This document shows, piece by piece, positions 11,267-16,348 of a stretch of DNA of 64,000 nt. Both the position numbers and the translations under genes were made by a program. The notes below the pieces were generated by a model. That model was not told where the DNA came from, searched no databases, and worked only from the letters and a program-made list of their open reading frames with translations. Origin of the DNA: Alphaproteobacteria bacterium (GTDB taxonomy: Bacteria > Pseudomonadota > Alphaproteobacteria > UBA9655). Position 1 is the first letter of the stretch. Each line of letters starts with the position of its first letter. Where the stretch lies: positions 1,958 to 65,957 of the forward strand of contig CANGTV010000003.1 of the NCBI GenBank assembly GCA_947457015.1, given 5' to 3'.

Positions 11267-14200
11267 ATGAAAAAATTTGCATTTGCGCTTGGTGTTACAA
11301 GTTGTTTGGTAGATGTTAGCTTAGTATATGCTAAAACCAGTATTCTAGAAGAAGGATTAGTTTTTACCTCCATACGAGGACTCAAAAGAGTAGTCCCTTG
11401 TTCGAGGTCTCGTGAGAATGATTCCTTAAAAAATCTCTCTGCTAAAACATCAACGGGACAAAGTCTGCGCTCCTTACAAGCTCTTTATAAACCTATTGAT
11501 TTAAGAAGAAAGTTACAGCCCTTAGCACCGCAAAGGTTTTCCTTGTGGCAAACTTCTCGTTATGCTTTTCAACATCCGACTGTCCCTCTTCAAAGGCTTT
11601 TTCCAAGGCTGGCTCCCCTGTCTCTTTTTGAAGCTTTAACCCGTCCATCGCGTGCAGCCTCAATTTCTACTGTTTTTAAAGCGCCCACACCTGCCCGGCT
11701 GCCAACTCTTAACTTTGCGCCACCTCAACGGCCCTCCTTGAGAAACGCCATGGCAGCACCAACCCAGCCATCCCCTTTCCTTGAGAAAGTGGCGTCAAAT
11801 CTTACCCGGTCGCTCTCTCCTCTTTCAACGCACGCGCTTGCAAAACCTCAGGCGCCTCAATCACTGCCTTCTCTTAGAGAGGCTATCTCGAAATTTGATT
11901 GGATGCTTTCTCCTGCGCTTCCGACACAATCGGAGGGTCTCGCTGCTTCTCTGAAGACCGCCTCCCCTCATTCACTTGTGCAACGTACTGGCTACGTTTC
12001 ACAAGCCTCTGTTTCTTTGCCCCCAGCAATAGAGCAAGTGATAGAGAAATTTATATCACAAGAAACGTCACATCTCACCCCAACGACGCCGCAACCACAG
12101 CGGTCGGGGCAAGAGTTGAGTGCGGCTCTTTTCATGGCTCACTCCCCACTGCCTTTAGGGAAAGAGCAGAATCTCAACAAAGATCATCTCCGTGAAGAGC
12201 GCCCTCATGTTATTCCTCAGCCTCTCCATCCTGGTGTTGGAGATCCCCATCTTGAGATTCCTATTTCAGAAGAAGCTCTTTTAAACCTCTTAGGAAAAGG
12301 ACGCGTTCACGCTCCCGTTCATATGGACGGAACTCCTGTAGGAGTCGATACGGTTGTAACCAAAGTCGAGGCCCATGAAGTCCAAGCTCAAGCACACGCC
12401 ATTCTCAAGCCACTCCCTCTTGTTGCCGACCATCAAGAGCCAGAAGAAGATGTAGAAGAAAACAATGAAGCAGCGGTGGTCTCTCAGGATGTGACTGTTG
12501 AAGACCTTGGATTTTACTTTCAACCTCCAGTAGTTAGGGTTCCTTCTCTAACGGCAATTTCTACAGCTGAAAAGAGAGCTCAAAGAGCTGTAACCAGTCT
12601 TTTGAACGTAGGCAGAACGGCCCTTTCATCCAAGCTCCCTGTTGCAAACTCACAGGATTTTGCTACTCCCACGTCTCCTAATGCCTTCAAAGCGACGAAA
12701 ATAAAAGTGATGCTCGACCTTGCGGCGCTTGGCATGAATGTTCCCGAAATGCCTCAGCAGGTTACTCTCTCTGTAGACCTTACTTCTTTGCGAGAAGTCC
12801 CCAACACACGCGAATTGACTTTGGATTTCACTGGGTCAGAACAGAAAAGCGCTCTTGTCTCTTCTACAAGATCGAGGCTTTCAGAACGTGCACGTCCAAA
12901 AACATACACGCTGGCTGTCACACTTACGGCTCCTGATCGTGAGCCCCAAGTCATGCGTATTTCTTTAGACTCCCGAGCTTTAGCCAGGTTTGCTACTCTT
13001 ATGCAGCCTCCTGTGTCTCCAGATGTTGCGGCCTTGGAATCTACAGGAACGCTTACGACGCGCAACGCTTTCCAAGCTCAGAAACACCAAGAATTGCTTC
13101 ATCAATTGATGACCCTCCTGCAATCTTCTTTCACTTCAGATGACGCGCATCAGCCTCTTTTGACCACACCCACTATTTCTGATCGTCTTTTTGTTAAAAA
13201 GGTGCAAGCTCCTGTACCATTCACTATTAAATCGCCTGTACGCCCTCTTCGCCACAGCTCGCGCGTGACCATCGAAGAGGTATCTCGCTCCGTTTCTTTC
13301 TCCAGAGGTGAATTGCGTCAGCCTCTTATGACCGCTCCTAACGACAGCGAGGTGTCCCCTCGTCTTTTGGTTGAAGAAGCTCACTCTTCCGTGCCTTCAG
13401 AAAACCAGACTGTCAAAAGATCGGCTACACATGCTCCTCATCAATCACCCATAGTCGTCAATACGACGTGGGAAAAGGTACCGCCCCTCCTCAAGACTCT
13501 AGAACAGTCCACCAAGTCTATGGCGGCTTCCCTTGTCTCACCTCGTCTCGGACAAAGAATGACGTCACCATCACATTACAGGCTTCCTAATTCTCTAGGA
13601 AGGCAAAAAGGCCTCAATAGCGCTCCATTTCCTGTGGAAATCACGCATGTTTTTTCGCTTGGGTCTTCCCTGGTAAAAACTCTAGAGCAGCCTTTAACGA
13701 CTTACCTTGTCTCGCCTCGTGCCACGCAAGAAACGGTGTCTTCGTCACAGCATAGATTTTTTGACGCCTTCAAGAAGGCTCTCTTGAGAAAAACGACTGC
13801 CCTGTCTACCCAAATTGAGACTCCTGTCCTTGAGTCTTTGCCGGAAGCTCACCAGCTTGTTTCTCTACAACCTTTAGACGTTCAACCCTCCCACAACAGC
13901 CCCAGCTCTGTCATGAGTGTGACGATTAATTTGGCGGAGGCTTTTGGCACTAAAGTTTCTCCTCATGCTCCCCAGGAGGTCACTCTTTCTGTGAATCCGG
14001 AGTCTCTTAGAATTGTTCGTGATGATTCCTTGGCTTTGGAGTCTAGCGATGGGCGTGATAAAGATTCTCTTCTTCTTCCTTCAGGATCGGGCTTTCAAGC
14101 AAACACACACCAAAGGTATACGTTTGACCTCACCCTAAAGGCACGTGGTTTTGAAACACAAACGGTCACTGTCTCTTTAAATTCTAAAGATTTCAATGAA

Positions 14201-16348: not shown

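Follow-up and report, generated by a model that had tools for sequence, protein, structure and literature searches.

We analysed a stretch of 64,000 nucleotides from an alphaproteobacterial assembly (GenBank GCA_947457015.1, contig CANGTV010000003.1, positions 1,958 to 65,957 of the forward strand), called the window below. A reading of the bare sequence, referred to here as the original prediction, had singled out one very long open reading frame (ORF) in it. This ORF runs without interruption from 11267 to 16348 on the forward strand, is indeed the largest of the window, and encodes 1693 amino acids with a mass of about 180 kDa. Its product, the giant protein, belongs to an orphan family of exported proteins and contains three divergent copies of a small domain, which in the best-supported account would be its conserved functional units. 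The observations made originally were largely correct, and the interpretation given to them is partly supported. The features of the giant gene are the following, in positions of the window:

11186-11215 (+): sigma-70-like promoter, TAGACA, 18 nt and TAAAAT, with TG before the -10 hexamer (10/12 match)
11267-16348 (+): giant ORF, exported protein of an orphan family, 1693 residues, intact in five lineages
11267-11335 (+): first 23 codons, MKKFAFALGVTSCLVDVSLVYAK, predicted Sec signal peptide with likely cleavage between VYA and K, near-invariant across lineages
11831-11926 (+): 32-residue unit (LAKPQAPQSLPSLREAISKFDWMLSPALPT..), of variable copy number, one copy here and two in L008
12692-13021 (+): module copy 1 (residues 476-585), placed by hidden Markov model (HMM), alignments and predicted secondary structure
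13127-13396 (+): pair of QPL[LM]T[TA]P...L[FL]V[KE][KE] segments (residues 621-651 and 677-710), E about 2e-4
13487-13720 (+): pair of L[LV]KTLEQ...LVSPR segments (residues 741-760 and 802-818), from motif matches
13904-14236 (+): module copy 2 (residues 880-990), from HMM placement, alignments and a structural model
14237-14767 (+): linker from module 2 to module 3, conserved, with invariant columns and predicted short helices such as PQPFLGRLLTTLSRGTSS and SDMLRALARLRAL
14768-14995 (+): module copy 3 (residues 1168-1243), without the central loop of about 34 residues, from HMM and profiles
15530-15673 (+): two dispersed units containing SPT[VL]VKP (residues 1422-1469), repeat family D1, from motif matches
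15781-16104 (+): tandem array with a 54-nt, 18-residue unit LVAESLEGSPTVVKPSTP, copy number strain-variable, from repeat detection
16064-16306 (+): basic Lys/Ser/Pro-rich C-terminal tail, common to all orthologs

The three modules had been noticed by eye, and formal alignment confirmed them at the places proposed. Modules 1 and 2 aligned with a Smith-Waterman z of 14.6 (0/500 shuffles were as good) and a BLASTP E of 1.6e-12, and modules 1 and 3 with a z of 4.6. As a single pair, modules 2 and 3 were not significant (z = 1.4), and they became so only when ortholog profiles were used. In profile-profile alignments built from four orthologs, each pair was significant, with E = 3e-26 for modules 1 and 2, E = 9e-10 for modules 1 and 3 and E = 7e-9 for modules 2 and 3. 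An HMM made from 12 module copies found exactly three copies in every ortholog. With the same HMM, the giant protein showed no fourth module, and no module was detected in the rest of the window translated in all six frames. The linker between modules 2 and 3 has the lowest regional ratio of nonsynonymous to synonymous substitution (dN/dS) of the gene, 0.31, and its helices are predicted with low confidence.

An AlphaFold2 model of module 2, computed from the 12-copy alignment, had a mean predicted local distance difference test score (pLDDT) of 69.7, with values of 78-90 in the core and an unconfident loop at residues 49-70. The predicted topology is beta-alpha-beta-beta-loop-beta-beta-alpha. 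A second model, of the 790-residue core and based on four sequences, reached a mean pLDDT of 35.8, with the best local confidence in module 3; this confidence is too low for anything other than secondary structure, and the model was used for that only. In it, each module displays one and the same pattern of secondary structure, so that the three would share one topology, and between them there is little but a few short helices. Foldseek searches with the module model against PDB and the viral library BFVD returned nothing at E <= 0.001, with best template modelling scores of 0.28-0.39. Comparison of the module profile with PDB sequences gave sub-threshold matches to the CH1 domain of antibodies (best E = 0.0056). 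We regard these as chance matches driven by composition, because the predicted topology ends in an alpha-helix and is not immunoglobulin-like, and because Foldseek did not support them. The modules are a small alpha/beta domain of about 75-110 residues with no known sequence or structural relative. This agrees with the uncharacterised repeated fold that had been proposed, since the searches run recovered neither kind of relative.

For the giant protein as a whole, no family match was obtained in Pfam (to E <= 1), NCBIfam, PHROGs or PADLOC, and a comparison with PDB sequences gave a chance hit only (E = 0.3). A word-indexed search of 5.8 billion proteins returned four relatives. One of them, P0001, has 98% identity and lacks exactly two of the 18-residue units; two others from JGI metagenomes, P0002 and P0003, have 35-36% identity; and P0004, from a groundwater metagenome-assembled genome (MAG) labelled 'Proteobacteria bacterium', shares 44% identity over the core. 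With an HMM of the conserved core (residues 460-1249), which includes the modules, 1.84 billion representative proteins were searched exhaustively, and only the family itself was recovered. When one genome per GTDB species was scanned, the locus was found in a single MAG, that of P0004. The family is therefore restricted, within these searches, to a few uncultured freshwater and groundwater alphaproteobacteria.

All orthologs follow one order. The near-invariant 23-residue N-terminus is followed by a variable region with a unit of 32-47 residues present one to three times, then by module 1, a linker, module 2, the better-conserved linker and module 3. After module 3 come an acidic Ser/Thr-rich stretch, tandem units containing Ser/Thr-Pro (S/T-P) motifs and the basic Lys/Ser/Pro tail. 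Across five lineages the frame is open over 1657-2178 codons. Between L002 and L005, the two lineages closest to each other, dN/dS is 0.42 for the giant gene (0.31-0.61 by region), 0.65 for the downstream gene p324, and 0.08-0.17 for two flanking genes. Cross-lineage protein identity is 35-44% for the giant protein and 27-35% for p324, against 72-89% for flanking proteins. Judged from these substitution patterns, the giant gene is under weak but real purifying selection. Upstream, the promoter block TAGACAAA..AAAAATT.GCTAAAATT is kept before the orthologs in L002, L005 and L003. The gene is real, given the open frame in five lineages, the dN/dS of 0.42, the conserved promoter and a native G+C content at third codon positions (GC3).

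In addition to the modules, shorter duplicated segments had been listed, and all of them are present: two L[LV]KTLEQ...LVSPR segments, two QPL[LM]T[TA]P segments and six SPT[VL]VKP cores. The QPL[LM]T[TA]P pair can also be seen at the DNA level (family D2, 45 nt, 73% identity), and the L[LV]KTLEQ...LVSPR pair alone is not significant by BLAST. The 54-nt tandem repeat comprises 4.2 copies at 15835-16059 and holds four of the six SPT[VL]VKP cores. An 89-codon ORF at 15837-16106 (+) is the array repeat read out of frame (MWLSLLKEVQLWLSPLPLL repeated) and not a gene. Copy number differs between strains that are 99.96-100% identical over the giant gene, which differ in nothing but repeat number, at two sites. 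At one of these, the near-identical strain L001/L009, the source of P0001, has two array units fewer, with 99.96% nucleotide identity elsewhere. At the other, L008 carries a 96-nt in-frame duplication at about 11831-11926 and is otherwise 100% identical. P0002, P0003 and P0004 contain two or three units related to the duplicated 32-residue segment.

Towards the C-terminus, the last 300 residues show a 2.3- to 3-fold enrichment of S/T-P motifs, and a C-terminal enrichment of this kind is common to the orthologs. The tandem S/T-P units have a length of 18 residues here, 15-16 residues in P0002 and P0003, and 26 and 15 residues in P0004. The units thus differ from lineage to lineage, in each of which they expanded independently. 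The Lys-rich tail carries SPKK/TPKK-like motifs in all orthologs.

The protein had been described as largely low-complexity and dominated by Ser, Pro, Thr, Leu and Gln. Ser (13.3%), Leu (12.0%), Pro (9.8%) and Thr (9.3%) do lead, followed by Ala (7.8%) and Val (7.0%), but Gln ranks ninth; Cys, Trp and Tyr occur two, five and 15 times. Ser, Thr and Pro together account for 32.5% of the residues, compared to about 17% in control proteins of the same window, and for 42-43% of the last 300 residues. The first part of the description is nevertheless too strong, as an entropy of <3.3 bits was found in just 13% of 40-residue windows of the protein. The giant protein is compositionally biased rather than simply low-complexity.

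At the nucleotide level, the suggestion of a compositionally distinct gene does not hold. The G+C content (GC) of the giant gene is 0.480, against 0.436 +/- 0.040 for the other 48 ORFs of the window, and mutS, to which it had been compared, is higher still at 0.503. GC3 is 0.396 and equals the window mean of 0.399, while GC at second codon positions is 0.494 against 0.389 in other ORFs. The higher total GC thus arises because Ser, Pro, Thr and Ala codons raise second positions, and the same codon bias accounts for the strong negative GC skew across the gene. Horizontal transfer was considered and rejected, as GC3 and synteny are both native. By these measures the gene is native and not foreign.

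The N-terminus has the n-h-c layout of a Sec signal, consisting of MKK, FAFALGVTSCLV and DVSLVYA, with K as the next residue. Residues 4-22 form the sole hydrophobic segment of the protein (Kyte-Doolittle 1.8; next highest 1.1). The Sec-type signal peptide recognised originally, and Sec export with a signal-peptidase I site, are therefore plausible on this layout, with cleavage likely after VYA. A lipoprotein reading of V-T-S-C13 was discarded, since the PROSITE pattern PS51257 fails, with Lys3 in the excluded stretch and the Cys before position 15. The signal peptide is the most conserved part of a gene that is among the fastest-evolving of the locus. Over the first 69 nt, 64-66/69 positions are identical between lineages, compared to 25-63/69 for the first 69 nt of other genes. 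Identical residues are encoded by identical codons in 90% of cases at the N-terminus, in 56-68% in neighbouring genes and in 43-51% in the rest of the giant gene. RNA structure was examined as a cause and rejected, the fold stability relative to shuffled sequence having a z of +0.47.

Our leading, though tentative, interpretation is that an expressed native gene encodes a large Sec-exported, mostly unstructured and rapidly diversifying filament or coat of the envelope or cell surface; we hold it at not quite an even chance. The three folded modules would serve as binding or assembly elements, and the disordered, length-variable segments as spacers that project or embed them. Through electrostatic attraction, the basic tail could hold the protein at the anionic envelope. 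Selection from outside, for example by phage, grazers, hosts or other cells nearby, might lie behind the fast evolution and the variation in repeats. In this account, which is the best supported, the modules would be the conserved functional units; surface exposure, binding, disorder and any glycosylation are suppositions.

Several observations weigh against this interpretation. Intrinsic disorder, which had been claimed originally, agrees with the composition and with the low AlphaFold confidence outside the modules, but both are weak indicators, the confidence because it comes from a four-sequence alignment. Furthermore, in a disordered or mucin-type protein of the classical sort one would expect less Leu and Val than the 12% and 7% seen here. 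For crossing the outer membrane, we detected no beta-barrel, lipobox, repeat of the type I secretion system (T1SS) or known sorting signal in the giant protein, which by its sequence may remain in the periplasm. The near-invariant signal peptide is left unexplained by an envelope or surface protein. Finally, no region of the gene has a dN/dS >1, and fast evolution with values <1 fits relaxed constraint as well as it fits diversifying selection.

The N-terminus and the lack of any outer-membrane translocation feature would be in line with a different role, which we think unlikely: a periplasmic or inner-membrane-anchored scaffold, in which an uncleaved signal-anchor touches a conserved partner and the Pro-rich chain spans the periplasm like TonB or TolA. 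Near-invariance of 23 N-terminal residues next to a divergent remainder is typical of partner-contacting membrane segments and unusual for cleaved signals. The neighbourhood, with tol and envelope-biogenesis genes, is also consistent with a scaffold. As in TonB and TolA, a hydrophobic and conserved segment at the N-terminus leads into a long Pro-rich region, and the gene lies beside tolQR. However, Asp16 interrupts the hydrophobic stretch and its V-Y-A end fits a signal-peptidase I site, so the segment looks cleavable. The giant protein is about six times longer than TonB or TolA and fast-evolving, no TonB_C or TolA C-terminal domain was found in it with Pfam, and rapid divergence with strain-level repeat variation is unusual for internal scaffolds.

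The filament or coat interpretation also has to be seen together with the adjacent genes, of which the following are of importance here:

10024-11097 (-): Acyl_transf_3 membrane acyltransferase (Pfam), divergent from the giant gene, given as context
16431-17405 (+): p324, orphan and exported like the giant protein, the next gene downstream at every locus
17712-21362 (+): cassette of an ArnT-like glycosyltransferase of the GT-C fold (GT-C), a family 2 glycosyltransferase (GT2), GtrA and YdjC, given as context, with a putative action on the giant protein

Just past the signal peptide, p324 carries 5-6 clustered Cys (CWKCCFFPCC in this window and CWWNCCCCC in other lineages), then a variable Ser/Pro/Thr-rich half and a conserved C-terminal domain of about 150 residues. 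It had no match in Pfam, NCBIfam, PHROGs or PADLOC, and no paralogy with the modules or the giant protein was found. An internal 12-nt repeat of 3.3 copies at 17291-17330 (+) encodes SRxxSR-type repeats (SRGVSRTASRAVSRMGSR).

The gene order giant gene, p324, GT-C, GT2, GtrA, YdjC is retained in every lineage seen, including L003, which differs on the upstream side of the giant gene; in the fifth lineage, p324 was seen upstream of the ArnT-like GT-C. L001, L002, L005 and L008 have the acyltransferase next to the giant gene, an arrangement that L003 lacks. In Pfam, the families matched by the GT-C are PMT/PMT_2. The only relative with a solved structure is the ArnT of Cupriavidus metallidurans (E = 5.5e-28), and no protein O-mannosyltransferase was recovered among solved relatives. 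Against the NCBIfam ArnT model the GT-C scores 135 bits, where the equivalog cut-off is 567 bits, and its first periplasmic loop reads D-P-S-E-A-R-Y where the C. metallidurans enzyme has G-P-D-E-G-R-Y (PSE for PDE). The best NCBIfam match of the GT2 is PgfS (272 bits), followed by ArnC (166 bits), both below their cut-offs.

An ArnT-family GT-C, an ArnC-like GT2, YdjC and GtrA are thus encoded together, with all NCBIfam equivalog scores below cut-off. The combination of ArnT-like and ArnC-like enzymes with YdjC (NaxD/LgmC) and GtrA (LgmD) is the set used for hexosamine modification of lipid A in Francisella and Bordetella. In Bordetella, lgmA-C are needed for lipid A glucosamine (PMC4993483). 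From its sequence, the cassette most likely acts on lipid A, with sugar and acceptor as predictions. By analogy, it could instead glycosylate the giant protein and p324. In streptococci, systems of a GT2 and a GT-C attach glycans to disordered, Ser/Thr-rich regions outside the cytoplasm, which shields these regions from proteolysis (PMC12041528).

On that analogy, the giant protein and p324 would be dedicated substrates of an adjacent three-component glycosylation cassette, giving a protease-protected mucin-like glycoprotein; we judge this decidedly unlikely. The GT2 would make an undecaprenyl-phosphate sugar, YdjC would deacetylate it, GtrA would flip it and the ArnT-like GT-C would transfer it to Ser/Thr. 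Both candidate substrates are exported and Ser/Thr/Pro-rich, the gene order is kept in every lineage seen, even where the upstream side differs, and S/T-P repeats were amplified independently per lineage. The enzymes offer some support as well: the best match of the GT2, PgfS, is a protein-glycosylation enzyme of Streptococcus mutans, the streptococcal pair sets a precedent, and with PSE in place of PDE the GT-C is no canonical ArnT. On the other hand, the only solved GT-C relative is a lipid A transferase, and YdjC in such a cassette marks modification of lipid A with an aminosugar, as in NaxD of Francisella and LgmC of Bordetella. A distant contig (L012, 594-3189) encodes YdjC, GtrA and an ArnT-like GT-C, in that order, without the giant gene or p324. 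Lipid A genes (a GnnA/GnnB-like pair) lie close by, and synteny among close relatives is expected regardless of joint function. A metagenome scan with the ArnT-like protein gave three loci, and the loci in hand are too few to test whether the giant gene tracks the presence of the cassette. 'Mucin-like', a term of the original prediction, stands as far as the Ser/Thr/Pro composition goes, and glycosylation by the cassette is conceivable, but the likeness is one of composition and the cassette looks more lipid-A-like. As a combination of both views, lipid-A-type machinery may have been recruited to put an aminosugar on the giant protein and p324, forming a Gram-negative mucin-like coat, which we find more doubtful still; the invariant 23-residue N-terminus could then couple export to modification.

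The original prediction had also called the protein possibly host-directed. Such an effector would be aimed at a eukaryotic host, for example a protist, with S/T-P repeats and a basic tail that mimic phosphorylation or nuclear-targeting motifs in the manner of the Ehrlichia tandem repeat proteins (TRPs). The C-terminal S/T-P enrichment, the Lys-rich tail with SPKK/TPKK-like motifs, the variable tandem repeats and the orphan, fast-evolving nature of the gene would all suit this role, which we nevertheless consider very improbable. Known effectors of type I, III and IV secretion systems are not delivered via a Sec signal peptide, and a scan of window ORFs identified no genes for type III or IV secretion, but only Tad pilus genes and a secretin. 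Nothing points to host association of the organism, which is uncultured and known solely from one groundwater MAG and metagenomic contigs. The MutS of the window has relatives at 72-92% identity in dozens of uncultured alphaproteobacteria and is 57% identical to that of the endosymbiont Ca. Bealeia and 56-57% to that of Azospirillum. Because it is equally distant from these two, the lineage is unplaced and bears no mark of host association. The other genes of the window are those of an ordinary free-living chromosome, with housekeeping and envelope functions (tolQR, ftsK, lolA, mutS, pyruvate kinase, rho and tRNA synthetases), and the host-directed role is unsupported.

That the ORF is a decaying, non-functional remnant or a repeat-assembly artefact has become hardly credible and is already largely refuted: a homolog of known function was not found and in L008 only a 141-residue fragment and no full-length gene was called, but the interruption there is a scaffold gap of 100 N that falls within the tandem array, preceded by 1594 open codons, and the sequences of related strains and lineages indicate an intact gene, with an open frame in five lineages, a dN/dS of 0.42 and a conserved promoter and start region. 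Neither of the sequence outcomes named in the original prediction as its refutation, modules that fail to align or a gene broken in close relatives, was observed.

To place the giant protein among known exported proteins, we compared it to several classes. The N-terminus, a 22-residue MKKFAFALGVTSCLVDVSLVYA, does not have the KxYKxGKxW-type motif of Gram-positive serine-rich repeat proteins. SecA2 or SecY2 are not among the neighbours (acyltransferase, p324, GT-C, GT2, GtrA, YdjC), and neither SX-dipeptide regions nor an LPXTG anchor are present, with Ser at 13.3% and repeats in units of 18 and 32 residues. For autotransporters and other type V systems, a C-terminal beta-barrel translocator is missing, the C-terminus being the Lys/Ser/Pro-rich tail. 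For repeats-in-toxin (RTX) proteins and type I adhesins, the N-terminus is of Sec type, HemolysinCabind or a related family was not matched, and no T1SS genes lie nearby. Among repetitive surface proteins, the giant protein is thus distinguished by the lack of LPXTG, beta-barrel and RTX features, and its three-module core is unique to it. With Ehrlichia TRPs and serine-rich repeat adhesins it shares the Ser-rich bias, strain-variable tandem units and a rapid lineage-specific turnover, but no sequence homology, and it has a Sec signal instead of T1SS or accessory-Sec export.

The lipid A aminosugar cassettes, namely Arn, Bordetella lgmA-D (PMC4993483) and Francisella FlmF2/NaxD/FlmK, have the same component set as the downstream genes. 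This comparison concerns the neighbouring genes and not the giant protein, and the low ArnT score and the PSE loop set the cassette apart. With the streptococcal GtrB/PgtC2 and Pgf systems and their substrates Cnm, WapA and PrsA (PMC12041528), the locus has in common an exported protein with long Ser/Thr/Pro-rich, probably disordered stretches, encoded next to a PgfS-like GT2, a GtrA-type flippase and a GT-C. Here, however, the bacterium is a Gram-negative alphaproteobacterium, the GT-C is nearest to ArnT, YdjC is present, and the giant protein, whose glycosylation is hypothetical, is much bigger and contains novel domains of its own. Both the family and the domain are new; in kind, the giant protein is one of many large, repetitive, lineage-specific exported bacterial proteins.

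If the filament or coat interpretation is true, the locus provides a new domain family and a further case of an exported protein that is very large and mostly disordered and diversifies by repeat expansion, in an uncultured and poorly known alphaproteobacterial lineage. Its worth is mainly that of a lead, and for now it is one of many orphan repeat proteins known from metagenomes. The three modules are candidates for a fold without solved relative. A near-invariant signal peptide in front of a fast-changing mature protein hints at a constraint on export that has so far gone unrecognised. As the giant gene is consistently paired with an ArnT-like cassette, the locus bears on whether such cassettes can modify proteins in Gram-negatives.

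Besides the acyltransferase and the ArnT-like cassette, the envelope genes around the giant gene, which speak for an envelope role of its product, include tolQR/ybgC, DsbA-type proteins and the GnnA/GnnB-like pair. The latter, at 23661-25840 (+), consists of a GFO/IDH/MocA oxidoreductase (best NCBIfam match UDP-GlcNAc 3-dehydrogenase) adjoining a DegT-family aminotransferase. We take this pair to resemble GnnA and GnnB, the makers of the diamino-sugar backbone of lipid A. Between ybgC and the acyltransferase, at about 9255-9609 (-), there is a frame-broken remnant of the N-terminus of an IS5-like transposase (DUF4096). At that site, the near-identical strain L001/L009 has an insertion sequence with DUF4096 and DDE_Tnp_1 ORFs (L001 2973-3736), and its ybgC-tolQR side is exchanged for other genes. 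Tad pilus pseudopilin-type genes (TadE, TadE and a TadG-like gene with a VWA domain) are located at 26011-28923 (+), and a separate secretin gene at 51249-52865 (-). Two ORFs of 503 and 290 residues, at 46295-47806 (-) and 6550-7422 (-), have no Pfam match; the shorter one sits at the expected position of tolA, after tolQ and tolR.

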